A stretch of DNA of 64,000 bases from an uncultured Ferruginibacter sp. (GCA_964590975.1 CAZPXP010000006.1:42729-106728), one strand, 5' to 3'; positions 29,140 to 48,479 are shown, numbered from the stretch's first letter. The notes: generated from the sequence alone by a model not told the origin. A program made the numbers and translations.

Positions 29140-32100
29140 CTACCTGATAAGTGTTATCGTACCCCGCAGGGTTTGCAGGTTATTGTACAGGTCGTAGTAG
29201 GTAATAAAATAAGTATAAGTACCGCCGGGTGCCGGGCGGCCGTTGGCATGGCCATTCCATCCCTTATCTCTCGAAGAAGAAGTAAATACAACCTGCCCCC
29301 AGCGGTTATAGATCTGCATCGTCATTGAAGTAAGATGCTCTGCATGCAATACCCTGAACACATCGTTTACCCCATCCCCGTTTGGCGTAAAAGCATTCGG
29401 CAGCTTTACCATTTTCCATACCTGTATGTTCACACTATCCAGCGCAGTACAGCGGTTATCGGCATTCACGCGCAGGTAATAAGTCATATCGCCCGGTGGT
29501 GTGCTAAGAGGCTGGGGTATGGTAGTGGCATTGAGGTAGAGGCCGGGTGTCCATACAAAACTGATACCCGGCCCTGTGCCGCTGCCGTTGAGGATAACCG
29601 GTGTGCCTTCTGTAATAGTTTTGTCCGGCCCGGCGTTGGCAGTAGGCGCTTGTAATACCGTTACATTAGCTGCTGCCGTAGCCGTGCAGCCGGTAACGCC
29701 CGTGTAAGTGTACCTGATAGTATGAGTGCCGTCGCCCGCCCGTGCAGGATAGAATTTTCCATCACTGCCCATGCCTGCGCCGCTGTACACACCGCTGCCG
29801 GGTAAGCCGGTGGTATCGCCAGCATAAATAAATAGGTAGGGAGGTATATTGCTGCATACAGTATCGGGCGGGGTAAAATGCAGGAGCGGGCTTGCCTTAA
29901 GCACAAGGGGATATATTTTTTCGTCTGCGCAGGTGATGCCCGAGTAAGCGCTCACGCCGATCCTTACGGTTTTATACAGGGGCGCGCCAAATACAGGATA
30001 CTGGTGCTGGTATTTTTTACCGGGGTAAGGAGTTTCGTCGGTTTCTGCTAAAAGTGGCTGGTTGTCGACATCCCAGCGGATGCTGAGTTTTGTAATATTT
30101 CCAAAATCAACTGAAGACATATTTTCTATGCCCACCGGCAGGTTACTGCAAATGCTGTCGTTGCCGGGTATGCGTATCGCGGCATGCGGTACAGCGCCAT
30201 TCACAGTAAACATTTGTGTAAGTGTATCGCTGCAGCCCCGGTTAGTGGTAGCGATAAGGCTTACAGGGTAGATAGCGGCAAGCTGGTATTTGTGTACGGG
30301 GTGCCGGATAACAGCCGTGTCGGGATTGATGGCAGTAGCAAGCGGATCGCCAAAACGCCAGAGATAATTGCTCACCGCACTGTTGCCATTTACATAGCTC
30401 GAATCGGTAAATGAAGCAAAAGCATCAGTAAGGCAAACCTCCGGTAAAATAAAATTGGCTGAGGGGTTATCATATATGGTGATGCGGGCCGTTGCCATAG
30501 CGCTCAGGCAACCCTTGCTGGTTACAACGATAAGGCTTACGGGAAAGCTGCCCGTATCGCGGTACACATGGTTTACGGGTTGCCCGCTGGCTATATCAGC
30601 CGTGCTGTTATCGCCAAAATTCCAGAAGCCCTGCACAAGCTGCCCGGCATTAGCTACAGACTGATCTGTAAAAGATAATGTTCTCTGCAGGCAGGGCGCG
30701 CTGTTAAGGCGGAAAGCCGCAACGGGCCGGGGCAGTATGGTAATTGTTTTTGTAAGGGTATCCGTAATACAACCTTTATCCGTAAAAGCCACAAGGCTCA
30801 CCGTGTAATTGCCCGGCTGGCTGTAGTAATGCGCAGGGTTGGCGGTGGTATCAGTTTGCCCATCCCCAAGATTCCACCACCATTTTGTAATAAGGTGTCC
30901 GTTTCCGTTACTCGCATCTGTAAACCGGGTAGTATCAGTAAAGCAGGTTTCTGTATTAACAATGAAGCCCGCAACAGGTTCTGGATAAACAGTAGTAAGC
31001 GGCCGGGTAATGCTGGCTTTGCAGTTGGCAGCGGAGGTAACCGTAAGGCTGATATTATACAGCATGGCGGTATCGAACCGGTGTATGGGATGCTGCACGC
31101 TGGCGGTATTCGGATTTTGTACCGAAGCATGGGGGTCATTAAAATTCCACAGGTAACTGAAACCAGCCTGCGAGTTATCTGCAATAGTGCTCTGGTTAAA
31201 GAACTGCCCGATACCATCCGGCAGGCATATTTCCGGGAGCGTAAAGCCTGGTATGGGTAAGGGGTTAATGGTAAACGTATGCGTAAGGGGCAGGCTTTTA
31301 CAACCCGTGGCTGTTTTTAGCAAAAGCGTTGCGGTATAGGTACCAAATGCAGAATAGCTATGCTGCACCGTATCACTGGTTGTTTTAATGACCTGCGTGC
31401 CATCGCCAAAATCCCATGCCCATTGTACGATCTGCCCGCCAAAACCAATCGACGAATCGGAGAAGATCACGGGCTTGTCTTTGCAGAGCGTGTCTGATAT
31501 ACCAAACTTCGCCAGAGGCAGGTCGAAAACCCGTATGGTTTTTTTTACAGTGTCCGACTGGCAACCCAGGTCAGACACAGCCACAAGGCTGACGTTATAC
31601 AAACCGGCAGCATGGTAAGGCAATTTCGGGTGCTGCAAAGCAGATAAGCTGTCATTGCCAAAGCTCCAGTACCAGCCTGTGACCGGCCTGCCGCTGCCAT
31701 CGCTGTGGTCGGTAAAACTGGCGGTGTCGTTGATGCATGCTGCTGCGGGTGCGGTAAAAGCACCTGCCGGTTTACCATACACATCAATGTCCAGTTCTCT
31801 TTCCTGCGATGCGGAACCACATTCGTCGATACCCGGATTACTGAATTGTGTTTTAATGGTATAAGTGCCCGGCAGCAGGTATGATACCGGCGCAGGTGCT
31901 TTATATACATACAGCGTTTTGTTGTTTCTCGTATAGCTGGAATCAAATGCAGGATTTACCAGCGTATCGGCCTGCCCGTTACCATAGCTCCAGATGATCT
32001 GCGACGTGGTATAGGGAATGGTAAGCGAGAAGGGTACGGGGAAGTTGCTGCATACTGCATTCTGTGCCTGGTTAAATGAGGGGCCGGCAAAACTGATAAA

Positions 32101-33624
32101 CTGGTTCAGGTCTTTGATATCGGCACCAGCCAGGTAACCGTACGACTCTACTTCCCCATAACCGTAAGCAATGGAGCTGAAGCCGCTGTCGGCACGGATG
32201 ATATGCGTAGGATTAAGCGCCGTGCTGCCCGTAACATTCTCCTGTATATAACTGTGCCCTGAGCCGGGGATGCTGATAAATGAGCTGAGGGGAGGTTGTC
32301 CATCAATGGTAAGCGAAGCTTTATAAGTGTCTTTAATGATAACATTAATATAATGCTGCTCAATATTGGTATTGGGTGGCGTGAGGTCTTTTCTTGCAGA
32401 AAGTACGGTGATCTTGCTGAGGGTTTGCTCAATAGGGTTGAGTATGGTCATTTCAGGGTCTGCCGGGTAGGGGATGGGGTCGCCGGGCGCAACCACGTTC
32501 CTTGGGTCGCAGCTCTGCGATACCATATACTGCACCACCATAACAGGCTGGTCGGCAGTGATCACTTTTGTAAGCGCATCTTTGATCTCGTAGTACGAAG
32601 CCTTCTTCAATTGCACAGTGCTGAGCAGGCTGCCGTTTACCGTAACATTTGTAAGGGTATCATCTACAATAATGCGTATCACATCATAAGGCTGCCGGTT
32701 AATGAATGGTGCTGTAATAAATTGCTTACCCCAGGAAGTGATGGGAAATAATTGCTGGTAAAGATTATCGCCACCCGAGGGGTTTACGCAATCAAAGGCA
32801 TTCCAGGTACTGCCAGAGAATACTGCAATGGGCTTGCACGGAATATTGCCAACAGCAACGGAGCGAACCTCCGAGCCGGTAAGGTCTTTCAGCGATTGAA
32901 ACTGGTAAACCTCTCCCTTGTTTAAAGTGAGCTGAAAGGGTATGCCTTTGAGGCGGGTGTTGTTAATATCATTTTCTGAAGGTATAATTTCTACAATGGT
33001 TTGATTTTGAGCAGCTACGATGGCAAACTCGCTCCTGGCCGAATTAAAAGCATTATTGACCTGGTCGTAAGCGGCAATCTTATACCGCTTGCCCAGCGAT
33101 TTGGCGGGCAGTATCAGCGATGCACCCGAACGTGCTGAGTTGAGGATATGCGCATATACAACTACCGGCCGCTGCGCGGTGATCCTGATACCCGTGGGGT
33201 TTATAATATCAGAACTGCCGTTGTATACGGGGTACAACCCGGGGTGCACCTGCACAACAGTGGTTTGGTTGGCTGTGATGGTAAAAGAGATAGAACTGCC
33301 ATTGGTAAAAAGTACACTGCCTGTTGTGTTAGCTTCGCCTGTAATATAAAGCGCCATCCGCGAAGCCTGCCCGTCAATATGACCCGTGTAGGCCAGCCAG
33401 AAGTCTTTTCCTTTATTAGAAAAGTCCTGCGCGGCAAGAAAGAACCAGAGGTTACATAATAGGAATGATATGATGAGGCGACAGCGTAACACAGGTATAC
33501 ATAATTTTCTAACTGATACAGATGGTGGTAAAGGTAATTCTTCATGTAAAAAATAAAAAAAGATAAAAAATTTTCTTTTTTCATTTTTGTTTTTATTTTC
33601 GTTATACCAATTCGAACCGTACAA
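29140..33624 (-). CDS. Giant cell-surface protein: FCGBP-N-like head, multiple PKD-like repeats, T9SS type B (gliding-motility-associated) C-terminal domain
   Basis: C-terminus LPNAFTPNGDGVNDVFRV...IYNRWGQVVF...WNGHANGRPAPGGTYTYFI...GTITLIR is the canonical type B sorting domain. There are repeated ...F.D.S......W.W.FGDG... PKD-type modules. Coordinates give the maximal ORF. The first 44 codons fall in a poly-A/T tract, so a GTG at 33492 (MLRCRLIISFLLCNLWFFLAAQ) is the more plausible start. Confidence 0.9.
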   Translation of the reverse strand: MYGSNWYNENKNKNEKRKFFIFFYFLHEELPLPPSVSVRKLCIPVLRCRLIISFLLCNLWFFLAAQDFSNKGKDFWLAYTGHIDGQASRMALYITGEANTTGSVLFTNGSSISFTITANQTTVVQVHPGLYPVYNGSSDIINPTGIRITAQRPVVVYAHILNSARSGASLILPAKSLGKRYKIAAYDQVNNAFNSARSEFAIVAAQNQTIVEIIPSENDINNTRLKGIPFQLTLNKGEVYQFQSLKDLTGSEVRSVAVGNIPCKPIAVFSGSTWNAFDCVNPSGGDNLYQQLFPITSWGKQFITAPFINRQPYDVIRIIVDDTLTNVTVNGSLLSTVQLKKASYYEIKDALTKVITADQPVMVVQYMVSQSCDPRNVVAPGDPIPYPADPEMTILNPIEQTLSKITVLSARKDLTPPNTNIEQHYINVIIKDTYKASLTIDGQPPLSSFISIPGSGHSYIQENVTGSTALNPTHIIRADSGFSSIAYGYGEVESYGYLAGADIKDLNQFISFAGPSFNQAQNAVCSNFPVPFSLTIPYTTSQIIWSYGNGQADTLVNPAFDSSYTRNNKTLYVYKAPAPVSYLLPGTYTIKTQFSNPGIDECGSASQERELDIDVYGKPAGAFTAPAAACINDTASFTDHSDGSGRPVTGWYWSFGNDSLSALQHPKLPYHAAGLYNVSLVAVSDLGCQSDTVKKTIRVFDLPLAKFGISDTLCKDKPVIFSDSSIGFGGQIVQWAWDFGDGTQVIKTTSDTVQHSYSAFGTYTATLLLKTATGCKSLPLTHTFTINPLPIPGFTLPEICLPDGIGQFFNQSTIADNSQAGFSYLWNFNDPHASVQNPNTASVQHPIHRFDTAMLYNISLTVTSAANCKASITRPLTTVYPEPVAGFIVNTETCFTDTTRFTDASNGNGHLITKWWWNLGDGQTDTTANPAHYYSQPGNYTVSLVAFTDKGCITDTLTKTITILPRPVAAFRLNSAPCLQRTLSFTDQSVANAGQLVQGFWNFGDNSTADIASGQPVNHVYRDTGSFPVSLIVVTSKGCLSAMATARITIYDNPSANFILPEVCLTDAFASFTDSSYVNGNSAVSNYLWRFGDPLATAINPDTAVIRHPVHKYQLAAIYPVSLIATTNRGCSDTLTQMFTVNGAVPHAAIRIPGNDSICSNLPVGIENMSSVDFGNITKLSIRWDVDNQPLLAETDETPYPGKKYQHQYPVFGAPLYKTVRIGVSAYSGITCADEKIYPLVLKASPLLHFTPPDTVCSNIPPYLFIYAGDTTGLPGSGVYSGAGMGSDGKFYPARAGDGTHTIRYTYTGVTGCTATAAANVTVLQAPTANAGPDKTITEGTPVILNGSGTGPGISFVWTPGLYLNATTIPQPLSTPPGDMTYYLRVNADNRCTALDSVNIQVWKMVKLPNAFTPNGDGVNDVFRVLHAEHLTSMTMQIYNRWGQVVFTSSSRDKGWNGHANGRPAPGGTYTYFITYYDLYNNLQTLRGTITLIR

Positions 33625-33756
33625 TATTTAAACTCTAACTGTGTGAGCACTACCGAAAACTATTTTCTGCGCCTGTTGAATAGTGTACCCCTGTCAGCTA
33701 AATTATTCCGGGCACCTGCACATCTCCCTTATTTTTTTAATAAGAAACTGCATCTT

Positions 33757-36700
33757 ATGTCATACAAGTACATCCGTTCCGTGCTATGCCTTTTCATGCT
33801 CTTCCTTACAGTGTCGGCCCATACGCAAACCTCTAATTATTCCGACTCGACACTCGCCGTTATAAGGATTAAAAAAATTACTTCCAGCCATGCCGCCGGT
33901 AATGGTATGCAGGTAAGGCTGTTTAACCGGTACGACAGCAGCTCTATCATTAACCTCAACCGCAGCCTCAGCTATTATACGGCTTCTTCAGATACGAATG
34001 TGTTGATCAACGAGTGTACCAAAGTGTTTGCGGTATATGCACCCGACTATAAGATGAAGCTGGTAACCCGCTACCCGTCTGAGTTTGGTCTGTCCGGCGA
34101 TTCTCTTGTAACTACTGTAGACCTGCATTATTATGATGCAGGCACTTATGTGCCACTACAGTTTTCAAAAACCCTTGAGGGAGGTATTGTAATTACCTGG
34201 GATATCGAATTTAAGTTTTATATCAAGCGGCCTGCGAGGCCAACAGTGGGTGGTAACGATACGCTGATTATCTGTTCAGACACTGCCAACGCCATTACCA
34301 TGCGTACCGGCATACCCCTGAAGCAGGGCCTGGTTTACCGCTGGGAATATACTTTTCCCACTTCTAACGAGGAAGTGGAGAACCCCTACTATATCAACCA
34401 CTGCGAGCGTGCAGCAGGTAAAGGCTTTCCCGGAGGAGGGAACGACGGCGGGGCGAACGGACAATGTTATATTCCGCCGCAGGACCCTGTGCGTTCCTTT
34501 TTCCAGCATTATGCTTCGTGCAGGGATGTGCCGCCCACTATAAAAAAGTGGACCTGGTACCAGCTCGGCGTACCACAGAACACCGATACGATAACGTTCA
34601 ACCCCAGTACAGCGATCGATTTCAGTCTTGTAGGCGGCCTTACCACAAACAGGGTCGTGTATTTCAGGGTGTACGCTACGGCGGCAACAAACGTACTGGG
34701 CAAGGATACCAGCTACTACTCGCTGCCGGCCTCCTATGTGTTTTCTCCCCCGGCGCCATTGATAGAAAGCCTTACAAAAACCCCTGCCTGCCCCAACGAC
34801 CAGCCCAACGGCAGTGTTCATGTTATTGTAGACAGGATACGTACGTTCCGGTATATGCTCAACAACGGGCACGATAATACCATGGCCAATTGTAACCCGC
34901 AAATCAGCAATTGCTTTGGCTTCAATGTAGCTTCGGGTACTGTGTATAATTCGCGCAACCTGGATATTACGGGTCTTGCCCCGGGACCTTATACCTTAAG
35001 GCTCTCCAACCCCGGCGATACGCTGGGTAATTGCTGGCATGCGTATAATATTACGATCGACTCCATACCGCTGCTGCACATGAGTATCGACTCTACAAAA
35101 GGTGTAAGCTGTTATGGTGCTGCGGATGGGTACATTAAACTGTCGCGCACGGGTGGTAACACGCTGTATCCCTTTACCTATAAGATACTGCGCCTGGCTA
35201 CCGGTGCGGTAATCACCAACAACACGGGCATCTTTACCAACCTGCCAGGTGGCGATTATCTTGTAAACGTGCAGGACCAGTGCCAGCAACTGCAATCTGC
35301 AACGGTAACGCTTGCAGAGCCAACAAAAGTTACGGCAACAGTGGGGGTTACGCATGCCACCTGTGCCACACCCGGCAATGCCTCACTCAGTATCAATATT
35401 ACAGGAGGCGATGGTCTGTATAATTATTATCTAATCAGATCGGCAACAGATACAATATACCGCCTGCTCAACACTTCCTTAACTGCATGGCCGTTATCGG
35501 GCCTGGCCGGTGGTAATTACCGGCTGGTGGTTAACGATGCCATACGTACCAACTGTGCCGGTTTCGATTCTGCCATCATCATCAACAACCCGCCTGCACT
35601 GTCTATATCGCTGAACCGGGTAGACAGCATTACCTGCTATGGCGGCACCAATGGCTTTATTAAGATCACCGCATCGGGTGGGGCAAACAACTATCTCTAT
35701 ATAGGCAGCAGGGTATCCGATGGCCTGCCTGTTTACAGCCTTAACGGTGAGTACAGCGATCTCCGGCGTGGTAACTACCGCGTGGGTATTGTAAGTGGCG
35801 TACCGGGTTGTACAGACACGGCTTATTACGGAAGCCTTATACGCATATCCCAACCCGATAGTGTTTTAATGAGTTTCGACAGGGTTGACGTAGTATGTAA
35901 AGGCGATGCCAGTGGCAGTATCAGCCTTACGGATATTACCGGTGGCAACGGGCAGTATACTTACCAGTGGCAGAAACAACTGGGGACGCTGTATTACGAT
36001 TATTCATCCAACGGGCAGGGTACGGGTACTTCGATTACCAATCTTTTTGGAGGAGTGTACCGCCTGAAGGTAACGGACCGGAAAGGCTGTGTAGATTATT
36101 CTGAGAATATTACTGTGCTGGAAGCAGACGTGGCTCTTACTATACTTAACGTAGAAGTCAGAGATATAAGGTGCTATGGTACATACGGAAAAATATACCC
36201 GGGTGTAATAGGCGGCTATGGAAGTTATAAGTATTACTACCGCGACCTGACACGTGTTTCCTACACGCTGTTTGATACCAGCTACAATTTTGCCGGTGGC
36301 AGGTATTTACTGCGTGTAATAGATGAACTGGGTTGTGTAAAAGACTACCCTGATACCATCAGGATCAACGACTCACCGGGTGCGCTTGACTTTACCACTA
36401 CCCTGTCTATCTACAGCGGGTATAATGTGTCGTGCTTTGGAAACAACAACGGCACCATTACCGTAAGTGCATCGGGTGGTAATGGCGGGCCTTACAGCGG
36501 TTATACTTATGCAATAGGTAATCCGCCAGGTGCTTACCAGGTATCCAACATACTTACTGATCTGACAGCGGGGGCAAAAGTGGTTACAGTAAAAGATGGC
36601 AGGGGGTGCACGGTAAGTAAAACGATTACACTCACACAGCCTGCTTCGCAGCTTAACGTTACCACCACGATGATCAGGGATACCTGTATCTACGACAGCG

Positions 36701-37923
36701 CAGGCGTGGTGTCTGCCACGGCTACCGGCGGGGTGCAACCTTACCAGTACAAAATGACAAAGTCTGACTCTCCCGGGGCCTGGTGGGAAACCTGGCAGAG
36801 CAGCAATACCTTCTCCAACCTGCCACAGGGTGTGTACACGGTATATGTTAAGGACCAGAATGGTTGTACGAGAACGGTGCTTCGTTCGGTTACCTATATC
36901 AGTGCAGGGCCCAATATATCAATTACCAAAACGCATGTTAAATGCTTTAACGGCAGCGACGGCTCGGCACAGGTAACGGTAACCAGTGGCCAGAACCCTG
37001 GCGGTACGCCATACGTTTACCAATGGAGCAATGGTGCAACCACATCTTCAGTCATTAATATACCCGCGGGGAATTATACGATAAGGGTAAAGGACTATCT
37101 CGGTTGCAGAAAAGATTCGCCGGTAGTGATTACACAGCCAATTGAGCTGATCAACAACGTTCATGTTAAGCCCGTTTGCTTTAATGCCACCAATGGTGTA
37201 ATTACTGTTACCGGCAGCGGGGGTGTACCTGCTTATACTTACTCAATTGATAATGGATCGTCTTACCAGCCGGGTAATATTTTCAATAATGTGCCGCAGG
37301 GCACGTACAGCGTGATCCTGAAAGACAATAACAATTGTAAGGATACGGTAAGCGCGGTGGTTAACTCGGTAACGACAGCTACTTTCCTCAACTTCCTGGT
37401 ATCGAGCAAACACAATGCTTATGATACGCTGGTGGTGAAAGAAGTGTGTAACCCGCGGCCTGACTCTATCCGGTGGGTATTTGATACGGCAGCAGTTGTT
37501 ATTGATGCTTACCAGTTTGAGCCACGGATCAGGTTTGCCCGCCCGGGTACGTATAACATCAGCATGACGGCCTGGTTTGGTGGCTGCGACCGTTCGATGA
37601 CCAAAGCGATCGAGGTAAAACCGTTCGATTCCACGATTGTCTATACCAATACTAATCTTGCGGGTATTGATACGGTACTGCTGATGCCCAATCCCAGTAA
37701 TGGCCAGTTTGCCATGCAGATCAAGCTGTTCAGGCAGCAGAAGCTGGAAGTATATGTGCGCGATCCGCAGGGCATGCTTCTTTTCTCACGCAGGTGGAAT
37801 GGGGTTAAGGAAGTAATGGAATACGTTAACCTGAACAACAGCGGGCAACTGCCTTCGGGTATATATTATATGAAGATCATAACAGATAATGATGCGCGTG
37901 ATAAGCGGCTCATTATACTATAG
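33757..37923 (+). CDS. SprB-repeat cell-surface adhesin with T9SS type A C-terminal sorting domain
   Basis: The ATG at 33757 gives signal peptide MSYKYIRSVLCLFMLFLTVSAHTQ. At least 8 SprB-type repeats (VSCYGAADGYIKLSRTGG, ITCYGGTNGFIKITASGG, VVCKGDASGSISLTDITGGNGQYTYQW, VSCFGNNNGTITVSASGG, VKCFNGSDGSAQVTVTSG, PVCFNATNGVITVTGSGGVPAYTYS). C-terminus LMPNPSNGQFAMQI...LPSGIYYMKIITDN. Confidence 0.9.
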   Translation: MSYKYIRSVLCLFMLFLTVSAHTQTSNYSDSTLAVIRIKKITSSHAAGNGMQVRLFNRYDSSSIINLNRSLSYYTASSDTNVLINECTKVFAVYAPDYKMKLVTRYPSEFGLSGDSLVTTVDLHYYDAGTYVPLQFSKTLEGGIVITWDIEFKFYIKRPARPTVGGNDTLIICSDTANAITMRTGIPLKQGLVYRWEYTFPTSNEEVENPYYINHCERAAGKGFPGGGNDGGANGQCYIPPQDPVRSFFQHYASCRDVPPTIKKWTWYQLGVPQNTDTITFNPSTAIDFSLVGGLTTNRVVYFRVYATAATNVLGKDTSYYSLPASYVFSPPAPLIESLTKTPACPNDQPNGSVHVIVDRIRTFRYMLNNGHDNTMANCNPQISNCFGFNVASGTVYNSRNLDITGLAPGPYTLRLSNPGDTLGNCWHAYNITIDSIPLLHMSIDSTKGVSCYGAADGYIKLSRTGGNTLYPFTYKILRLATGAVITNNTGIFTNLPGGDYLVNVQDQCQQLQSATVTLAEPTKVTATVGVTHATCATPGNASLSINITGGDGLYNYYLIRSATDTIYRLLNTSLTAWPLSGLAGGNYRLVVNDAIRTNCAGFDSAIIINNPPALSISLNRVDSITCYGGTNGFIKITASGGANNYLYIGSRVSDGLPVYSLNGEYSDLRRGNYRVGIVSGVPGCTDTAYYGSLIRISQPDSVLMSFDRVDVVCKGDASGSISLTDITGGNGQYTYQWQKQLGTLYYDYSSNGQGTGTSITNLFGGVYRLKVTDRKGCVDYSENITVLEADVALTILNVEVRDIRCYGTYGKIYPGVIGGYGSYKYYYRDLTRVSYTLFDTSYNFAGGRYLLRVIDELGCVKDYPDTIRINDSPGALDFTTTLSIYSGYNVSCFGNNNGTITVSASGGNGGPYSGYTYAIGNPPGAYQVSNILTDLTAGAKVVTVKDGRGCTVSKTITLTQPASQLNVTTTMIRDTCIYDSAGVVSATATGGVQPYQYKMTKSDSPGAWWETWQSSNTFSNLPQGVYTVYVKDQNGCTRTVLRSVTYISAGPNISITKTHVKCFNGSDGSAQVTVTSGQNPGGTPYVYQWSNGATTSSVINIPAGNYTIRVKDYLGCRKDSPVVITQPIELINNVHVKPVCFNATNGVITVTGSGGVPAYTYSIDNGSSYQPGNIFNNVPQGTYSVILKDNNNCKDTVSAVVNSVTTATFLNFLVSSKHNAYDTLVVKEVCNPRPDSIRWVFDTAAVVIDAYQFEPRIRFARPGTYNISMTAWFGGCDRSMTKAIEVKPFDSTIVYTNTNLAGIDTVLLMPNPSNGQFAMQIKLFRQQKLEVYVRDPQGMLLFSRRWNGVKEVMEYVNLNNSGQLPSGIYYMKIITDNDARDKRLIIL

Positions 37924-39844: not shown

Positions 39845-42800
39845 ATGTTAAAACATTTGCCCACTGCTGCCTTACAACGACTAACCGGGATACTTATCCT
39901 GATGCTCTCTTTTGTAAAAGGATATTCACAAACCATTTTTCCTGTACAGGCGAGCACACGTGTACTGACACCTTACTCGGTTTACCTTGCGGACTATGCC
40001 GTTAATGGTAATGATAAGTTGCAGTCGGTACTCATTAACCGGGATGCCGCGCAGACAACCTACCAGGTGATCCTGCGGCTGACAGTAAAGCTGAACGGGC
40101 AGGTGATCATGCGCAGCAAGCCTGGCTTTGCCCCCCAGCCGGTTACACTGGCGCCGCAGGTGCCGGTGATCGTGGCGGGGGCAACACTGGAACCTTATCT
40201 TAAGTCGGAGAACCTCGACTTTGTGGGATACAGCCAGGCTTTATATGAGCAGAACAGGGCCTTACCTGAAGGTTTTTATGAGATATGTTTTTCGGCTTAT
40301 GATTATTTCCGCCCCGATGTGCAGGTGAGCAATGATGGCTGTGGTTTTTATTACCTCGCAAAGAATGAGCCGCCATTGATCAACGGGCCTGCCTGCGGCA
40401 CCACCCTCGCAGCTCAGTACACCACACCCGTACGCTTTAGCTGGCTGCCGAGAAATAATGCATCGCTTAACTCTTTCAACAATACCAAATACCGCTTATA
40501 CATTTATGAGGTAAACCCCATCACAAGAAACCCGAATGATGTGGTTAACTCGGTGCCGCCGATTTTTGCAGACAGCACCCCCATCGGCCAAACCTTCTTC
40601 GACGTGATGCCCACCACTGTATTGTTTCGCGACAGCATGCTGTATGCATGGCGTGTGCAGGCTGTGGATGCGGGTGGGGTAGATATGTTTCGCAATAACG
40701 GGTTCAGCGAAGTGTGTACGTTTAAGTGGGGTGGCCCCGGCAGTACGAACGGTGCCATAGACAGTGTGCTTAACCTGAATGCGATTGCTGAATCGCCGCG
40801 GAAAGGAAAAATATGGTGGACAAAAGACAGTATTAAGTTTGACGCGTATAAAGTGTACTATAAAAAAGCGGGCAACGGGTATAACTGGTTTACCGTAGAA
40901 ACAACAAAGGATACCATACGGGTAACCGACCTGGAGCCCAATACGGAATACCAGGTAAGATTGCAGGGTAAAAAGAATGGCAGCTATGGTTTATACAGCG
41001 ACCTCCGTTATTTTAAAACACCGGCGCTGGTGCAGCGTGTATGCGGCAACGACCCGTTGCTGGACAGTTCGCTCAGCACCCGCCCTCTGACCAGCCTCAG
41101 CGTTGGTGCAATGGTGACTTATCATGAATTTGAAATAAATATCAACGAGTTTGAAGCGCTGGCTGCACCGGGTTATTATAAGATTAAGAAAGGCACAGTA
41201 GCCATTCCTTTCTTTGCTGGCCGTTTGTTTGGTCTTAGCAGTCAGTCGGTATTCATCAACGACCAGAATATTATTACACAGGGTACTGTACTGTTCGACA
41301 GCCAGGACCTGCAAAACTGGATCAACCAGCACCTTGATGATGATTTTGGCGGCAATGATGCAGGCGACGTGGAAACGGGCGATGACGGGGTGGATTACCC
41401 GCTTGATTATGCCATCAGCGGCCCCGGGGCCATCCGTCCTGTACTGCCCATTACCAATGGTGTTACCGACCTGATCATTACACGCCCCGACGGTACAAGG
41501 GACACCTTACGTAATGTAAATTTACCTACCACCATAAGAGATGTTAATGGCAATATCTATGGGGTTGACAGGGAGGGAAGGGTAACTTTTATCGGAAGGA
41601 GCGGAACCATTACAGGGCTTAATCCCGCACAGTTGAACAAGCTGAGTCTCAGCAAGGCCCGCGTAACATTTGCACCTGCTCCTGACCAGGTATATGCCTT
41701 CGACGCATGGAATGCGACCTATGCAGGGAAGTACCGTGTGGAGCGGGAATATGAAAAGCTGACAGACAGCGCCAATGCCAGCCTGCCGCCCTATTATGTG
41801 CCGAACAAAGCCATTGGTGCCACCAAGCAGGATGTGGTGCTGGCTACTGTGGCCATTACCGACCCAACCATTATTGCAGACAGTATCAAATTTGTTACCG
41901 GTAAGGGTACACAGTTTGCTGCTGCGCGTACGTCTAACCCCAACGAGTATAAGATTCAGTTGGTGGGCGGGCCTGCGAATGATGCGCAGGAGCTGTATGC
42001 GCTGTACAAGAAAGACAGCACCTGGCTGAGCTTTGGTAAACTGAAAGTGCCGGGGTATGGAGCAATTTATAAAACAGTTGTACTTGTTCCTGTAAATGGT
42101 GTGTACCTTGATGTGGCGGTTATACAACGTAAGCTCAATACTATTTATAAGCCTCTGAATATTCATATTGCAGCTACGCTGACGGAAAACTTTGAAGATA
42201 CGAGCTGGTATAAGGGAACAGATACTACGATGAATGTTACCGGTTCGGGGTTATTCAGCCAGTACACACAGGATATGAAAAACCTTTACAGATCGTATAA
42301 ACAGGAAAAGGGTGTGCAGAAGGATGTGTTGTATATTTTTATGCTGCGTAAAAGCAATGAAGAAGGTGTGGCGGGCGATATGCCCATAGGTGGACAGTTT
42401 GGCTACCTGTTTGGAGAAGAAATAGGAGCAGACACAGTCTTGCTGGGCAAGATTGCTGCGCACGAGCTTGCCCATGGCATATTCAGACTGCACCATAGTT
42501 TTGATAATCTCGTAGGACTAACCAGGGGCGCAACCGATAATCTTATGGATTACCCGGTAAACAACCGGCTGTATAAGTACCAGTGGGATCAGTTGCACGA
42601 TCCGGGAAGTATAAATGGAGTTTTTCTTAAAGATGAAGACGTTGAGTATGTTCGGGTATATGATATCTCTGAGCTGAATGACCTGAGAAACAAAACGAAC
42701 TCAAGTGTAACAAATAATACTTTTACGTTCCTGTCACCTTCAGGAAAACCCTTTACGCTACCCGCAGATATTACTTCTGTGTCGATGAGCTACGGTGATG

Positions 42801-45800
42801 AAATGGTAATAAATGGATCCAATACTCCTTCGGGATCATTGATTCCTGTTGGATCGCTTACTCACTTTACAAGTAAATCTTTAGGGAAGTTTAAATTGAA
42901 GGGAGGCGGTAATCAGGATGCTGTTGGCTATATTAAGGAGTCCAGCTATAATAAGGATATTTCGCAGCTCCAAGAGTCCGACTATTACATCGATAATATC
43001 AGCAAACTTTTCACAATCAACCACCTGATTACGGGCAGTCCTGTAATTCAATCAGGAACAGTAGTGTACAGGGTAGGTTGGCGTAATTACACAGGATCTC
43101 AGATTACGGCAGATAATAAAGGTAACGGTACTCTTACACGCGATGTACCCTGGATGACGCTGTATCCTGACAATTATAATGATCCTCCTAACATTAACCA
43201 GCCTAACGGCCTAACTAAAACCAAGTTCATTAAGGCAAACTTCTTCCCTGAGTATGGTATAGAAGCAATGGAATTTCTCAAGCTTACGCTTGAGCCCGAA
43301 ACCGTCCTTGCCCCATACTCTCTTGTATTTGCCAACCAGATTAACCAGTATCCCAATGTGTACAGTACCTGCATTACTCCACCTTTTCCAAAGGGAGTAT
43401 TCAATCTTGGTGCAGGGTTGCTTAGCCTCAAGTACAGGGAGCTTATGCAGAGAATGTATGAAAGTGGGGAGATGATAAACGAAGCCAGGTTGCTGAAATG
43501 GCAAAATTATGAAACGGCCATTAATCAGGCATTACCGGCTGCTGTATTTACCCTGCGCGATTTACAGACCAGGATGAATGGTATTAATGCTGAAGCCCTG
43601 GGAAAAAGAACGCAGGCAGAGATGGTTACTTTCTTAAAATCGCTTGACTGTAACTGCCTTTATAACCAACTCGATGTATCTACAAAGGTTCATGTTTTGA
43701 AAACGCTGTGTTCAAGCAAGGTTAACGAACGGCTGGAGGAGCGGGTATATAAAGTAATATCAACTACAAATGAAAGTGATTATCCCGAACTTCTGAGCGC
43801 CTTTGCCGCTAATAACGGAGAGGTGATCAGGCTCATCGAGAAAAACCTGGATGGTAGCGACTGGGATAATTTTGTGCAGTTTATTGCACAGGCTGTGTAT
43901 TCGATTAAGCGACCCTATCCCGACTATTCACAGTTTGTAGATCCGGTTCAGATTGCTCCAAGACCAAATAATGCCGTCTGGGAATCGAGGGAGTTCTACA
44001 GTAATGACGCCACTATCGACCGGCCTTTTGGTTCTGAAGGGTGTAAAATGACGTATGGTTCCAGCAGCCAGTTTGTAGAAGCAACGGGAAAGGTTTACTT
44101 TGAAACACGCATACATTCGGAATGTTTGCTTAACCAGAATTACACTTATTGGAATGGTACACGTATAGCGAACCTGGACTTTTATGAACTGGTTGGTTTA
44201 ACGATTTCAGAAGATGTTCAGCTTGGAAGTAAGATAAAACTGAAAAAAGGTGACCAGGTAGTTGTGCCCATAATATGGGCAATGTGGCTCAACAAAAACA
44301 TGGTGTACAAGGAAAAGCTGAAAGCAATCCGGAGCCTTGCGGATATAGTTTTGTTCTTTACGCCGGTAGGATGGGCGGGTAAATTCGCACGATTGATCAG
44401 CGTTGCCAATAAAATTATTGCAACGATAGATTTCGGCAGAACCAATTTTGAATCTGAACTAAGGGGAGCATTACAGGCGGCGGGCTTGTCTGAATCTGAT
44501 GCCGATGCCATCGTCCAGGCATGGGATAAGTTGTACGAGGGGTATAACCAGGCACAACTTGCCTACCTGGGGGCAACTGTTTTCAAAAACTTTGTCGTCA
44601 CATTCGAAAGATTAATTACATCGCCCGATAAATGGAACAAGTTCAAGTTCTATTATCTCTACAGGATGGATCAGTTGAAACAGATTCCTGCAAGACTGGA
44701 AGAACTGTACAATCAGATCCGGTCTGAAATGGGTCTGACTGCTAACGGCGTATATCAATCGGCAGGCATAGGGGTGTCATTACAGGCCATGCCTGTTGGA
44801 ATAGCTAACTGGCTGAGAACGAACAGGAGCGTACAGGGTTTTAAAAATGTAGAACACCTGTTTATCAGTGTAAATGATGCCCAGAAGCGGATGAATCTCT
44901 ATAACTATCTGCGCCTCTGGGACGATCCGGCTGACTATCTCAAATATCGTAACCTCTTTGCAAAACTGGATAAAGCACTTGATGAGAACCCGGGACTGGC
45001 GTATGACTTTGCCCTGGGTGACTGGGCCCAAACCCAGAAAATGCTCGATAAGTTTGAAGCATTTCACAGAACAGGAACGGGCAGGCTGACTTATGGGCAG
45101 ATACTGGATGCAGAGGTGAGGGGAGAATTGACGCTCACACAAAGCTTTAAAAACTACCTGGCTAAGAATGTTCCTAATTGTGTTGAGTACCTGAAATACA
45201 ATAGTGAGATTATCAGTTCGGTCAATACACTAAAACAATACTCATTAATCAAGAATACTGGTACGGCAGTAGAGGAACACTTTGGGGCTGTGCACCGGTT
45301 TACAGTTAATGGAGATTTTCTGAATATTCCTATGCGGGAGGGGGGCTTCTTCTCCTATGCACCGGTTCAGTTTGGGGAATATGAACTTAATGCTTATAAA
45401 GCTATTGTTGAGGCGATGAAAAAATGGAGACTTACCTCAAGGTCGTATGCGGGTAAAACGGTATATAGGGGCATGTCGTTCAGGCAAACTGATTTTGACC
45501 AGTTGTTTAGTCCCACCGCCACCGAGATCAAACTCAAAGGATTCCAGTCGTGCAGTAAAACAACAGCCGCACCTATGGGCTTCTGGGAATTACAGACCGG
45601 TGAGGTAAAAGTATTGTTCAAAATAAAATCAAAAGCTGGTGTTGATATCAGTGATTTCTCAGACTGGGGAGACGTGCTGGGTCCGATTAAACATGGTAGC
45701 GCCATGCCGGCTTCTGTTCGTATTCAGAAAGAAGTACTTTTGGAAGAAGGGGTGTTCAGGATAGTAAACCGTTCGGGTATAAAAACTGCCCCCAACGGCC

Positions 45801-45850
45801 AGCAGTATTATGAAATTGAGCTTGAAGAGCTTGGCCAGTCATTCAGATAA
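39845..45850 (+). CDS. 2001-aa secreted polymorphic-toxin-like protein: N-terminal beta-rich region + FN3 + central HExxH zincin motif + helical region + C-terminal ADP-ribosyltransferase (R-S-E type)
   Basis: Signal peptide LTGILILMLSFVKGYSQT. FN3 module (IWWTKDSIKFDAYKVYYKK...LEPNTEYQVRLQG). AAHELAHGIFRLHHSF at 42455-42502. C-terminus KTVYRGMSF (Arg), GFQSCSK (SxS) and VRIQKEVLLEEG (QxE), with ART-like spacing. No T9SS sorting domain at the C-terminus. Confidence 0.85.
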   Translation: MLKHLPTAALQRLTGILILMLSFVKGYSQTIFPVQASTRVLTPYSVYLADYAVNGNDKLQSVLINRDAAQTTYQVILRLTVKLNGQVIMRSKPGFAPQPVTLAPQVPVIVAGATLEPYLKSENLDFVGYSQALYEQNRALPEGFYEICFSAYDYFRPDVQVSNDGCGFYYLAKNEPPLINGPACGTTLAAQYTTPVRFSWLPRNNASLNSFNNTKYRLYIYEVNPITRNPNDVVNSVPPIFADSTPIGQTFFDVMPTTVLFRDSMLYAWRVQAVDAGGVDMFRNNGFSEVCTFKWGGPGSTNGAIDSVLNLNAIAESPRKGKIWWTKDSIKFDAYKVYYKKAGNGYNWFTVETTKDTIRVTDLEPNTEYQVRLQGKKNGSYGLYSDLRYFKTPALVQRVCGNDPLLDSSLSTRPLTSLSVGAMVTYHEFEININEFEALAAPGYYKIKKGTVAIPFFAGRLFGLSSQSVFINDQNIITQGTVLFDSQDLQNWINQHLDDDFGGNDAGDVETGDDGVDYPLDYAISGPGAIRPVLPITNGVTDLIITRPDGTRDTLRNVNLPTTIRDVNGNIYGVDREGRVTFIGRSGTITGLNPAQLNKLSLSKARVTFAPAPDQVYAFDAWNATYAGKYRVEREYEKLTDSANASLPPYYVPNKAIGATKQDVVLATVAITDPTIIADSIKFVTGKGTQFAAARTSNPNEYKIQLVGGPANDAQELYALYKKDSTWLSFGKLKVPGYGAIYKTVVLVPVNGVYLDVAVIQRKLNTIYKPLNIHIAATLTENFEDTSWYKGTDTTMNVTGSGLFSQYTQDMKNLYRSYKQEKGVQKDVLYIFMLRKSNEEGVAGDMPIGGQFGYLFGEEIGADTVLLGKIAAHELAHGIFRLHHSFDNLVGLTRGATDNLMDYPVNNRLYKYQWDQLHDPGSINGVFLKDEDVEYVRVYDISELNDLRNKTNSSVTNNTFTFLSPSGKPFTLPADITSVSMSYGDEMVINGSNTPSGSLIPVGSLTHFTSKSLGKFKLKGGGNQDAVGYIKESSYNKDISQLQESDYYIDNISKLFTINHLITGSPVIQSGTVVYRVGWRNYTGSQITADNKGNGTLTRDVPWMTLYPDNYNDPPNINQPNGLTKTKFIKANFFPEYGIEAMEFLKLTLEPETVLAPYSLVFANQINQYPNVYSTCITPPFPKGVFNLGAGLLSLKYRELMQRMYESGEMINEARLLKWQNYETAINQALPAAVFTLRDLQTRMNGINAEALGKRTQAEMVTFLKSLDCNCLYNQLDVSTKVHVLKTLCSSKVNERLEERVYKVISTTNESDYPELLSAFAANNGEVIRLIEKNLDGSDWDNFVQFIAQAVYSIKRPYPDYSQFVDPVQIAPRPNNAVWESREFYSNDATIDRPFGSEGCKMTYGSSSQFVEATGKVYFETRIHSECLLNQNYTYWNGTRIANLDFYELVGLTISEDVQLGSKIKLKKGDQVVVPIIWAMWLNKNMVYKEKLKAIRSLADIVLFFTPVGWAGKFARLISVANKIIATIDFGRTNFESELRGALQAAGLSESDADAIVQAWDKLYEGYNQAQLAYLGATVFKNFVVTFERLITSPDKWNKFKFYYLYRMDQLKQIPARLEELYNQIRSEMGLTANGVYQSAGIGVSLQAMPVGIANWLRTNRSVQGFKNVEHLFISVNDAQKRMNLYNYLRLWDDPADYLKYRNLFAKLDKALDENPGLAYDFALGDWAQTQKMLDKFEAFHRTGTGRLTYGQILDAEVRGELTLTQSFKNYLAKNVPNCVEYLKYNSEIISSVNTLKQYSLIKNTGTAVEEHFGAVHRFTVNGDFLNIPMREGGFFSYAPVQFGEYELNAYKAIVEAMKKWRLTSRSYAGKTVYRGMSFRQTDFDQLFSPTATEIKLKGFQSCSKTTAAPMGFWELQTGEVKVLFKIKSKAGVDISDFSDWGDVLGPIKHGSAMPASVRIQKEVLLEEGVFRIVNRSGIKTAPNGQQYYEIELEELGQSFR

Positions 45851-45861
45851 TGTAATGTATT

Positions 45862-46734
45862 ATGGATATTAAAAAGATGCCGGATCCACTTGATGATGTA
45901 AGCCTGGCTTACCTGATCAGTGTGCATGACCAGGAAAACAGCATGGCCTGGAGTCAGGTACATCTGCTGTTGACGGATAGCCAGTTGCGGCAGGTGCTTG
46001 ATACTGTTTCTGAAAGGAATGAGAAAATGTGGGCGGAAGAATATGCTGCAATGAGCCAGGACGAGAAAGATGATGAGTTCAGGGGCAGTGCAATTTATTA
46101 TGCAAGGGATCATAACTTCTTTACACTGAAGGATGAATATGAGATGGTTAACAGGGTGGGCAATTTTGCTACGAGCGGGATCAATTATCTTCCGGAAGCG
46201 GATGATCCGGAACTGCACAGGCGTTTGACCAGGCGGGTGGAATACATGAGTCCCGGTGAGAAATTTACTTTTTATGCAGGTGAGGATTCTTTCCTGGCTT
46301 CCTGTTTTATAAGCCCGTTTACTGTTGATGATGACCGGTTTACTTCCTTTCTGCATTACATTACTTATGAAAAAGCAAAGCTTTTCAGGGACAGGAATAT
46401 TTATGACGATATATTGAAATGTACCGATCAGAAGCGGCTGAAGGAGCTGAACCATGCAGTAAAGTACTTTATTGATATAGTGTGGGATATGATGGTGCCG
46501 AGGATTTTCAGGAAAGGCCTGCAATGCAAATTTTCGCAGAATAGTAACCTCTATAATGAGTTGCTCAATACTTCGGGTACAACGATTGTGCTGGCGGATG
46601 ATAAGGAAAAGGTATGGAGTTGCGGTTTAGGCCCTGATGATAAGCGGATCAATGACCGGAAGCAATGGACCGGTATGAATCTGATGGGAGAGTTGATTAC
46701 AGAAATCAGGAGTGAATTTACCGGAACGTACTGA
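45862..46734 (+). CDS. NADAR (YbiA/DUF1768-like) domain protein with about 130-aa N-terminal extension; putative immunity protein or antitoxin
   Basis: Starts 11 bp after the toxin stop. The C-terminal half aligns by eye with E. coli YbiA: FTFYAGEDSFLASCFISPFTVDDDRFTSFLHYITYEKAKLF / VWDMMVPRIFRKGLQCKFSQNSNLYNELLNTSGTTIVLADDKEKVWSCGLG / GMNLMGELITEIRSEF. Confidence 0.8.
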   Translation: MDIKKMPDPLDDVSLAYLISVHDQENSMAWSQVHLLLTDSQLRQVLDTVSERNEKMWAEEYAAMSQDEKDDEFRGSAIYYARDHNFFTLKDEYEMVNRVGNFATSGINYLPEADDPELHRRLTRRVEYMSPGEKFTFYAGEDSFLASCFISPFTVDDDRFTSFLHYITYEKAKLFRDRNIYDDILKCTDQKRLKELNHAVKYFIDIVWDMMVPRIFRKGLQCKFSQNSNLYNELLNTSGTTIVLADDKEKVWSCGLGPDDKRINDRKQWTGMNLMGELITEIRSEFTGTY

Positions 46735-46865
46735 TGTTAGCTATTGAACTGAATAGCCTTAAAAATGAAATAAATAATCTTTTAGCAGGGCAGGAGCAGT
46801 TTACCTGCAGCCCCGTCAAGAATATAAAAACGTGCAATCATAAAATCACATTAATCTCAAAAAAA

Positions 46866-48479
46866 ATGAAAACAATTAACCGGTACTCATTATTTATTAT
46901 GGTGCTGTTGTGCAGCGTAGCCTTTTCGGTAACGGGCTACAGCCAGACCTGTTCCGGCCCTATCTACAACACTACCAACAGGATTATTATTACAGGCGTG
47001 GCCTGTGCTGCGACACAAACTTTTGAAGTGGATTTTGTATGGGACGACGGCCTGGGAACGGGCTCCTCTTTTTATTCGGGCACCCTGCCGGGTTTTACCA
47101 GCTTTGACCTGACTACAGATGCACCAGGCACCGGCGCCACAGGTACCGGTTTTGTGCTGGAACTGCCGGCAGGGGCAGACCTGCCTTATATTAACTGTAT
47201 ACAAGTGGGTACCGCACTGATTACCGTAAGGAAACAGGGTGTGCTTGGCCTTGACGTGGCTTATATAGATAATGTACTGCAACCCGATTGCCTGATCGAA
47301 TGCCCGGTGTTGCCCATTACGCTGCAAAGCTTCTCTTCTCAGTTTACCAACGGTCAGGTAAAGCTGCAATGGGTTACCGCACAGGAAAGTAACAGCAGCC
47401 ACTTCTGGGTACAGGAATCCTGCGATGGTGCCAATTTTGTGCGTATTGCCAAGATAGCGGCGGCGGGTACCAGTTCTTACCCGATCACTTATAATTATAC
47501 TGATCCTACTTTCTGCAAACCCCGCAGTTTCTACCGTCTTGAAATGGTGGATGATGACTGTAAGCGTAAGTTTTCGCAGATACTTTTGGTAACTACTACC
47601 AGTTGCAGCAGTTGCCCCAGTACACCGCCAACGGCTTCTTCGGCTTATGATCCGTGTGCGGGTGTATATGATGTAAAAATTACAGGGCCGGATCTTATAT
47701 GCAATAACCCCAACTATGCACTGTACCGTCTTAAAAATAAGCCCAACGGTGCTACTGTAACCTGGAGTGTAAGTTCCTCCGGCTATGCCACGGTAAGCGG
47801 TACTTCGGCTTATGCAAGGGTGCAACGCTCTAATAACTACTCCGGCAGCATCACGCTTACGGCCACTTTCTCCACTGGCTCCGGCCCGGTTACGAAAAGC
47901 ATCAACCTGGGTGCACAGCCCATACCGGTAACTACCGGCCAGTACTATTCGGGTTATACGCTGGTTCATACAGCAACGGTGTCTTCTCCGCTGCCCGGTA
48001 CCAGTTCGTATGATTATACCTGGTACCTGAATGGCAATTATATTGGTACGGGCCTCAGCCAGACGTTTTATGTCAACCCGCAATCTTCGGTATATTATGA
48101 TGTTCATGTTACTACGAACTGCGGGGAGTCTGTGTATTACGGTTATGTGTACAACCCGAATAGCGGCGGCGGTGGTGGTAACCCTCCCTGCGACTTTATA
48201 CCATTTAAGATAGCGCCTAACCCGGTAAAAGGATTTGTTAACCTGCGCCCGCTTCCCTGCGACCAGCAGCTACCATACGAGGTGAAAACGAAAGTGCCGG
48301 AGGTGTATACGGTACGTATCTACGACCAGATGAGGACGCTCCGCAAGGTATTCAATAACGTAAGGATCGCTGCCGGTGGCTCTGTTAAACTGGCTATAGG
48401 CGACCTGCCGAGGGGCAACTATATTGTAGAATTGTATGAAGGGAAACGTAAAGGATCTAACTGGATCATTGTAGAATAA
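46866..48479 (+). CDS. Secreted protein with Ig/FN3-like module and T9SS type A-like C-terminal sorting domain
   Basis: The ATG at 46866 gives MKTINRYSLFIMVLLCSVAFSVTGYSQ. Module CPVLPITLQSFSSQFTNGQVKLQWVTAQESNSSHFWVQES...FYRLEMVDDDCKRKFSQILLV is paralogous to one in 11972-13663. C-terminus FKIAPNPVKGFVNL...LPRGNYIVELYEG. The ORF-track start at 46734 (overlapping the NADAR stop, TGATG) would bury the signal peptide. Confidence 0.8.
   Translation: MKTINRYSLFIMVLLCSVAFSVTGYSQTCSGPIYNTTNRIIITGVACAATQTFEVDFVWDDGLGTGSSFYSGTLPGFTSFDLTTDAPGTGATGTGFVLELPAGADLPYINCIQVGTALITVRKQGVLGLDVAYIDNVLQPDCLIECPVLPITLQSFSSQFTNGQVKLQWVTAQESNSSHFWVQESCDGANFVRIAKIAAAGTSSYPITYNYTDPTFCKPRSFYRLEMVDDDCKRKFSQILLVTTTSCSSCPSTPPTASSAYDPCAGVYDVKITGPDLICNNPNYALYRLKNKPNGATVTWSVSSSGYATVSGTSAYARVQRSNNYSGSITLTATFSTGSGPVTKSINLGAQPIPVTTGQYYSGYTLVHTATVSSPLPGTSSYDYTWYLNGNYIGTGLSQTFYVNPQSSVYYDVHVTTNCGESVYYGYVYNPNSGGGGGNPPCDFIPFKIAPNPVKGFVNLRPLPCDQQLPYEVKTKVPEVYTVRIYDQMRTLRKVFNNVRIAAGGSVKLAIGDLPRGNYIVELYEGKRKGSNWIIVE

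Follow-up and report, generated by a model that had tools for sequence, protein, structure and literature searches.

ADP-ribosyltransferases (ARTs) paired with NADAR antidotes, hydrolase-fold immunity against a secreted ART toxin, and the TANFOR toxins are already known. In the Serratia proteamaculans type VI secretion system (T6SS), Tri1 blocks the toxin Tre1 with an N-terminal extension and reverses its modification with an ARH hydrolase (PMC8120803). In the DarT1-NADAR (DarTG1) and YarT-YbiA pairs, the NADAR encoded beside the ART is the antidote, and rescue is specific to the cognate partner (PMC11543638, PMC11125620). The TANFOR polymorphic toxins of Bacteroidetes were described by Jana, Salomon and Bosis (2020), who predicted their VIP2-type ART tips to be anti-eukaryotic; in the tables of that study DUF1768/NADAR proteins occur three times as neighbours, neither enriched nor discussed (PMC7073777). 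Zhang et al. 2012 name no NADAR immunity type (PMC3482391). Here we describe a gene for a 290-amino-acid (aa) NADAR protein that directly follows the ART tip of a predicted 2001-aa toxin of the TANFOR type, in a 64,000-nucleotide stretch of DNA from an uncultured Ferruginibacter sp. (GCA_964590975.1 CAZPXP010000006.1:42729-106728; hereafter the window). In the literature consulted, we found no description of a NADAR-fold immunity family for R-S-E polymorphic-toxin tips, of its helical N-terminal module, or of an entire clade whose active site has been dismantled.

The 290-aa protein is probably, though by no means certainly, the cytoplasmic cognate immunity protein of the ART tip, with a NADAR domain that is now a pseudo-hydrolase neutralising the toxin by binding and an ancestor that was bifunctional. 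We infer its immunity function, its binding mechanism and the choice of binding surface. The ATG of the gene lies 11 nt 3' of the TAA stop of the toxin open reading frame (ORF). A signal peptide is present in the toxin but not in the 290-aa protein. The orthologue P0002, in a syntenic locus (L001), is 51% identical. The features of the gene are as follows.

45862..46734 (+): candidate immunity gene, 290 aa plus TGA stop (ORF list; Pfam; NCBIfam; AlphaFold2 model; syntenic orthologue P0002)
45862..46251 (+): N-terminal extension, aa 1-130, all-helical (AlphaFold2 model; extension profile)
46258..46731 (+): NADAR-fold domain, aa 133-290 (PF08719; Foldseek)
46351..46353 (+): codon L164, at the site of the catalytic/ribose-binding E43 of the P. 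nicotianae NADAR (alignments)
46372..46374 (+): codon K171, at the site of the phosphate/adenine-binding Lys K50, kept (alignment)
46495..46497 (+): codon V212, at the site of the pyrophosphate-binding R93 (alignment)
46591..46593 (+): codon L244, at the site of the catalytic Glu E125 (alignments)
46606..46626 (+): E249-K-V-W252-S253-C-G255, a degenerate D-x-x-W-G-x-G in which the W and the last G are kept (alignments)

Tre1-Tri1 and this locus have in common that the gene of an interbacterial R-S-E ART toxin precedes an immunity gene in which an N-terminal extension is joined to an ADP-ribose-removing enzyme fold. The resemblance is only functional and architectural; the fold of the window protein is NADAR and not the DraG/ARH fold with an E-D-D metal site that marks the Tri1-like ARH family. 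In Tri1 the extension is a short segment and the enzyme is catalytically active; in the window protein the extension is a 130-aa helical domain and the catalytic residues are lost. The carrier of Tre1 is a PAAR/T6SS effector, whereas that in the window appears to be of the TANFOR type and comes from Bacteroidota.

The DarT1-NADAR and YarT-YbiA pairs likewise encode a NADAR-fold protein beside an ART. Their ARTs, however, carry an H-Y-E/D motif (ARTD-like) and belong to intracellular toxin-antitoxin modules, whereas the window ART is the R-S-E/Q-x-E tip of a secreted polymorphic toxin, and their NADARs are active hydrolases in which E/K/D(E) persist, both acidic residues being absent from the window protein. 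The locus does not belong to DarTG1, which combines a DarT-type ART with D171/K115-type residues: its ART is not DarT, and the region equivalent to D171/E173 reads V-L-A-D. Myxobacterial YbiA lacks any extension of the fold, unlike the window protein with its novel N-terminal domain. DarG is also a two-module antidote, with toxin binding and adduct hydrolysis divided between its modules, but it uses a macrodomain in another domain order, acts on another toxin class and is catalytically active. An initial annotation of the window had regarded enzymatic reversal as unusual for an immunity protein, a view contradicted by the precedents of Tri1, DarG, DarT1-NADAR and YarT-YbiA (PMC8120803, PMC11543638, PMC11125620).

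The NADAR homology of the 290-aa protein is secure, because profile, sequence and structure comparisons all lead to the same alpha+beta fold. PF08719 (NADAR) aligns with aa 142-286 from position 10 to position 162 of its 163, scoring 99.7 bits (E=2.8e-28) where the gathering cutoff is 35.1, and TIGR02464 scores 89.8 bits against a cutoff of 73.7. A phmmer search of PDB sequences matched 8bau (P. nicotianae) and 2b3w (E. coli YbiA), the two NADARs with solved structures, and nothing else. A full-length AlphaFold2 (AF2) model, built on an alignment of 11 family sequences, reached a predicted local distance difference test (pLDDT) of 92.2 and a predicted template modelling score (pTM) of 0.81. 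Foldseek matched this model in the PDB only to 8bau (E=1.4e-6) and 2b3w (E=1.1e-5), with a probability of 1.00 and target-normalised template modelling scores of 0.72 and 0.74, respectively. The C-terminal NADAR assignment of the initial annotation, for which it had proposed a profile check, is therefore upheld.

The ligand contacts of this fold have been defined in the P. nicotianae NADAR-ADP-ribose complex, where E43 and E125 hold the distal ribose, the pyrophosphate is contacted by K50, R79, W89, R93, W133 and (via water) D130, and the adenine by Y84, K50, G78 and V81 (PMC11543638). In the E. coli C7 NADAR, the D171A/N mutants of the E125-equivalent residue are inactive and mutants of E88 or K95 give no rescue (PMC11543638). 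We took residue roles from the ADP-ribose-bound structure 8bau and from this mutagenesis, with the numbering offset confirmed against the printed alignment. L164 stands at the site of P. nicotianae E43, which is E88 of the E. coli C7 NADAR and the Glu of TSEHY in YbiA; SSEQY in P. nicotianae reads SFLHY here, and the Glu is lost. L244 stands at the site of E125, the Glu by which the YbiA subfamily is defined ('LVEHT' in YbiA), and this Glu is lost as well. Both positions are aligned unambiguously because the flanking motifs, F.S..[HQ]Y..Y.KA and T.G.T[IL]V.A...D..WG.GL, are strongly conserved. The other positions of the site, given as the P. nicotianae residue and its counterpart in the window, read as follows.

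R93 to V212: lost
R79 to H198: changed
G78 to N197: changed
D130 to E249: changed
G134 to S253: changed
K50 to K171: kept
K75 to K194: kept
Y84 to F203: kept as an aromatic
D86 to D205: kept
W89 to W208: kept
W133 to W252: kept
G136 to G255: kept

From the conserved Glu pair and Lys of active YbiA-subfamily hydrolases, the 290-aa protein thus retains only K171, and judging from these replacements its hydrolase activity has probably been lost. Two by-eye observations of the initial annotation, the Glu-to-Leu change in TSEHY and the degeneration of D-x-x-WG-x-G, are real. Its list of non-canonical residues was sound as far as it went, and those residues prove to be conserved across a clade, but it was incomplete, having missed L244 and V212.

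The replacements are a property of a clade and not an isolated case. An exhaustive hidden Markov model (HMM) search with the N-terminal 130 aa as query recovered 11 proteins among 1.84 billion representatives, mostly of ~290 aa with the N-terminal module and NADAR, the remainder consisting of a single 369-aa protein and short fragments. Further loci, from Arcicella, Tenacibaculum, Aquimarina, Marivirga, Roseivirgaceae, Saprospiraceae and Bacteroidota metagenome-assembled genomes, came from a scan of genomes. The sequences fall into two clades. Clade B comprises 10 distinct sequences (the window protein, P0002, P0006/Arcicella, P0007, P0009, P0011, P0013, P0014, L013 and P0015), and clade A comprises another 10 (L014-L023) from Tenacibaculum, Aquimarina, Marivirga and Saprospiraceae. 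A neighbour-joining tree of the NADAR domain supports clade B with a bootstrap of 0.99, clade A with 1.0 and their union with 0.90; clade B is monophyletic, lies within Bacteroidota and has longer branches than clade A.

In none of the 10 clade-B sequences is either Glu or the basic residue at the R93 site present; the replacements are L/S/F/T/V (E43 site), L/Y/V/I (E125 site) and V/I/L/M (R93 site), and within this clade the K75, G78 and R79 sites are variable. By contrast, E43, K50, K75, G78, R79, E125, D130 and W133 are kept throughout clade A (10/10), where the R93 site, R or K in canonical NADARs, is basic in 9/10. The K50 site (K171) is invariant across both clades. Clade A thus resembles clade B in its helical module joined to NADAR, in the family of its upstream ART and in phylum, and differs from it in having intact ligand contacts, of which clade B has lost the acidic and basic ones, and an insertion of ~20 aa within the first hairpin of NADAR. 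With its site intact, clade A appears to represent enzymatic reversal-type immunity. The degenerate domain is under purifying selection: dN/dS, the ratio of nonsynonymous to synonymous substitution rates, is 0.15 between two Arcicella species (the comparison of the window with its orthologue is saturated, dS being undefined), and the family is conserved down to ~25% identity. As a separate observation, a 369-aa protein at L036:2300-3409 (P0010) has the N-terminal module and the start of a NADAR-like domain followed by an unrelated C-terminus, and may be a frameshift or a fusion.

Several points weigh against a degenerate binder. In the E. coli C7 NADAR, E88A kept much of its in vitro activity (PMC11543638), so loss of the E88-equivalent Glu alone is not proof of inactivity. 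Other NADAR subfamilies shift the second catalytic residue, to an Asp two positions off in DarT1-linked proteins and to a His in phage NADARs (PMC11543638), and 7/10 clade-B sequences have an Asp at +2 of the lost Glu (D246 in the window protein). The adenine/phosphate-side residues K171, F203, D205, W208 and W252 persist, so that the pocket may still bind a nucleotide ligand, and the solved ARTs closest to the toxin tip by sequence profile modify proteins. It is conceivable, then, that the 290-aa protein is still an active de-ADP-ribosylating enzyme that uses non-canonical residues, such as D246/D247 or E249, or residues of the N-terminal module; retention of G255 along with K171, W208 and W252, and the plainly enzymatic make-up of the sister clade A, would fit this. 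We nevertheless consider it unlikely. Both Glu residues and R93 are lost together, with hydrophobic replacements and no alternative polar groups; the +2 Asp is not invariant, since P0007 and P0015 have C and P0002 has S at this place; the positions invariant in the 10 distinct clade-B sequences include no newly gained acidic residue or His; and clade B has markedly longer branches and lower Pfam NADAR scores than clade A (71-100 against 148-157 bits). The initial annotation had offered enzyme and degenerate binder as alternatives, and since both Glu residues and the basic residue are gone in 10/10 clade-B sequences with no compensating conserved acidic residue or His, the binder is favoured.

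The N-terminal extension could provide a surface for binding. AF2 predicts seven helices in it (H12-22, H27-34, H39-63, H66-83, H89-97, H106-109 and H116-128). Aa 1-~130 have no Pfam match, and no fold relative of the module was found in the PDB or BFVD (best E=4.6 and 2.4); together with the 11 proteins recovered from 1.84 billion, this agrees with the initial remark that the extension matches nothing known. When the module was modelled alone, aa 1-75 remained confident while the confidence of aa 76-132 dropped, and pTM was 0.53 compared with 0.81 for the full-length protein, which suggests that the second half of the module packs on the NADAR domain. Proteins outside the degenerate clade have the extension too. 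Clade-A N-termini were picked up by an HMM built from the clade-B module (L023, 7e-9; L022, 1e-6; L021, 4e-5), and over the first ~100 residues of the extension homology can be detected in several members of clade A. We also observed a 182-aa ORF in a poly-immunity array of Tenacibaculum lutimaris (L014:8708-9256) that holds the first ~70 aa of the module (HMM E=8e-11), with no NADAR domain and no Pfam match. The presence of the module in clade A and in this ORF argues that it is older than the catalytic loss and can stand alone.

The toxin encoded directly upstream comprises the following features.

39845..45850 (+): predicted cognate toxin, 2001 aa, with a Sec signal peptide, a TANFOR-type carrier at aa ~20-1620 and an ART tip (ORF; weak TANFOR and fn3 matches)
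45191..45847 (+): predicted R-S-E ADP-ribosyltransferase domain, toxin aa ~1783-2001 (motif residues; profile matches)
45467-45469 (+): ART motif residue R1875 (homologue alignment)
45548-45556 (+): ART motif S1902-x-S1904 (homologue alignment)
45725-45733 (+): ART motif Q1961-x-E1963 (homologue alignment)

R1875, S1902-x-S1904 and Q1961-x-E1963 are invariant in 8 homologues. Pfam ART matches 5/8 of these (best 1e-6), Scabin-like 3/8 and ADPrib_exo_Tox 2/8; the window copy itself scores 17.2 bits with Pfam ART, under the cutoff of 22.3. Compared with the PDB, a profile of the homologues matches C3stau2 (E=4e-4), HopU1 (3e-3), Vis and the T6SS toxin Tre1 (6dre_B). With Arg, Ser-x-Ser and [Q/E]-x-Glu in order and this profile similarity, the tip can be assigned to the predicted R-S-E (ARTC) class. 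The R, S-x-S and Q-x-E residues are kept by the ART tips of all clade-B loci, and these transferases are presumably active, so that an antidote would be needed. An insertion in the ADP-ribosylating turn-turn (ARTT) loop was considered as a clade-B-specific toxin trait and rejected, as some clade-A-linked ARTs have loops of intermediate length.

The match of the toxin to TIGR02542 (TANFOR) is weak (17.1 bits against a cutoff of 67), and its aa 20-1620 are homologous to large carriers with other C-termini in L014-L022. It resembles the TANFOR class in its signal peptide, its putatively TANFOR-type N-terminus, its fn3 and its variable C-terminal toxin, as well as in having an immunity gene downstream and type IX secretion system (T9SS) neighbours of the SprB/C-terminal domain (CTD) and PKD/CTD kinds. 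Two large T9SS substrates flank the toxin operon (33643..37923 and 29140..33624), one carrying SprB repeats and Por_Secre_tail and the other PKD, IgGFc_binding and CHU_C, in agreement with the published enrichment around TANFOR genes (PMC7073777). In the window, the ART tip is followed by an immunity gene of its own, suggesting that it acts against bacteria. Within the carrier region common to TANFOR-type proteins, we noted the motif HELAHGIFRLHH (HExxH....HH) at toxin aa 873-884 (42461..42496), which is kept in the 75%-identical orthologue; this region may be a metallopeptidase or processing domain invisible to Pfam.

Linkage of this ART to the NADAR family recurs. A homologous ART was found by domain HMM directly upstream in clade B (the window, L001-L004, L007-L010, L013, L031, L032 and L035) and in clade A (L015 and L017-L023), and wherever a related locus extends far enough upstream the ART-then-NADAR-like order is seen, the exceptions being the Arcicella orphans, L014, L016 and L036. 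The linkage is kept in at least 12 independent loci. ART carriers range from 313 to 3130 aa, or the ART persists as a remnant, which fits a toxin-tip/immunity cassette. C-terminal ART remnants of 49-112 aa lie directly 5' of NADAR-type genes at L015:9795-10007, L017:9289-9624, L021:518-736, L023:9606-9905 and L035:190-336, and look like displaced cassettes of this kind. Orphan copies without a toxin occur in Arcicella (L011, L012), and poly-immunity arrays in Tenacibaculum (L014, L015). Both orphan copies and poly-immunity arrays are typical of immunity genes. The window gene and its relatives thus show what is expected of polymorphic-toxin immunity, namely a position on the same strand directly 3' of the toxin tip, a linkage independent of the carrier, and orphans, arrays and remnants. 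Between the window (39845..46734) and L001:4003-10882, the toxin is 75% identical (ART tip ~70%) and the immunity protein 51%, from which it follows that the antidote evolves faster than the toxin. The proposal of the initial annotation that the gene encodes a cognate immunity factor is supported by its place directly 3' of an R-S-E ART tip and by the recurrence of this order in related loci.

Tight linkage to the toxin tip would also be expected of an accessory factor without immunity function, which might serve as a chaperone or adaptor, holding the ART tip folded but inactive until its export, or might sense NAD or ADP-ribose. Pocket residues on the adenine/phosphate side are retained, and non-catalytic chaperones of ART toxins exist, for example TrxA for TreX (PMC11606950). 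Such a role is nonetheless improbable. The Arcicella orphans have no toxin to serve, clade-A copies sit in poly-immunity arrays or beside ART remnants in the manner of immunity genes and not of secretion adaptors, and these closest relatives carry an intact antidote-type hydrolase site. A gene beside a toxin merely by chance, whether a housekeeping NADAR of the YbiA type (the riboflavin-intermediate N-glycosidase for which TIGR02464 is named) or a decaying relic, seems very improbable indeed. The TIGR02464 score above cutoff and the Joint Genome Institute (JGI) name of an orthologue, 'ribA/ribD-fused uncharacterized protein', speak for the former, but the Glu residues required for glycosidase chemistry are absent, there are no riboflavin genes in the context, and the association with ART tips is conserved; the dN/dS value and the depth of conservation argue against decay.

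Taken together, the evidence favours an immunity protein acting by binding, for which we suggest the following history. The family is Bacteroidota-restricted and built from a ~130-aa helical N-terminal module and the NADAR fold. The ancestor, whose form still exists in clade A, was probably bifunctional, binding the toxin and hydrolysing an N-glycosidic ADP-ribose adduct in the manner of Tri1 and DarG. An N-glycosidic adduct on a base is suggested by the Q-x-E motif and by the intact NADARs of clade A, because no hydrolases other than NADARs are known to act on guanine or cytosine ADP-ribose (PMC11833690, PMC12945103), although the solved ARTs nearest by sequence profile act on proteins. In clade B, both Glu residues and the pyrophosphate-binding Arg/Lys would have been replaced once by hydrophobic residues, and only the binding mode would have been kept. 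Because the NADAR domain would then be a pseudo-hydrolase, protection would have to come from binding, presumably stoichiometric binding of the ART through the N-terminal module and/or the remodelled NADAR cleft.

A further, speculative scenario, possible but on balance doubtful, is that clade B represents the natural conversion of an enzyme into a pseudoenzyme within one toxin-immunity lineage. An ART element, such as the ARTT or NAD-site loop, could dock in the former cleft, now greasy (Leu/Leu/Val), while the helical module acts as a clamp. Catalysis could instead have been lost because the ART tips switched to a target with an adduct that NADAR does not cleave. As a corollary, VIP2-like TANFOR tips would be antibacterial and, given their intact clade-A partners, may modify nucleic-acid bases.

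Two other ORFs touch the immunity gene. An antisense ORF of 238 aa inside it, 45808..46524 (-), has no support and is probably spurious. A 581-aa ORF, 46734..48479 (+), overlaps the immunity stop as TGATG; its signal peptide begins at an internal Met45 (MKTINRYSLFIMVLL...), and its 526-aa orthologue in L001 starts 46 nt past the NADAR stop. The overlap is likely not real, because the true start is probably near 46866. The product has weak matches to PKD_6 and to a T9SS C-terminal sorting domain, both under the Pfam cutoff.

With the window and its relatives, the pairing of NADAR with ARTs reaches beyond intracellular toxin-antitoxin modules to include polymorphic toxins that Bacteroidota secrete. 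The family also sets an annotation trap, as clade-B proteins pass the NADAR and 'riboflavin N-glycosidase' thresholds without the chemistry. Clades A and B offer paired natural variants of one toxin-immunity system, with the hydrolase site kept in the first and lost, yet the protein still selected, in the second. With such pairs, the shares of protection due to binding and to reversal, the recognition of an R-S-E transferase by NADAR, and the substrate of TANFOR ART tips become testable.

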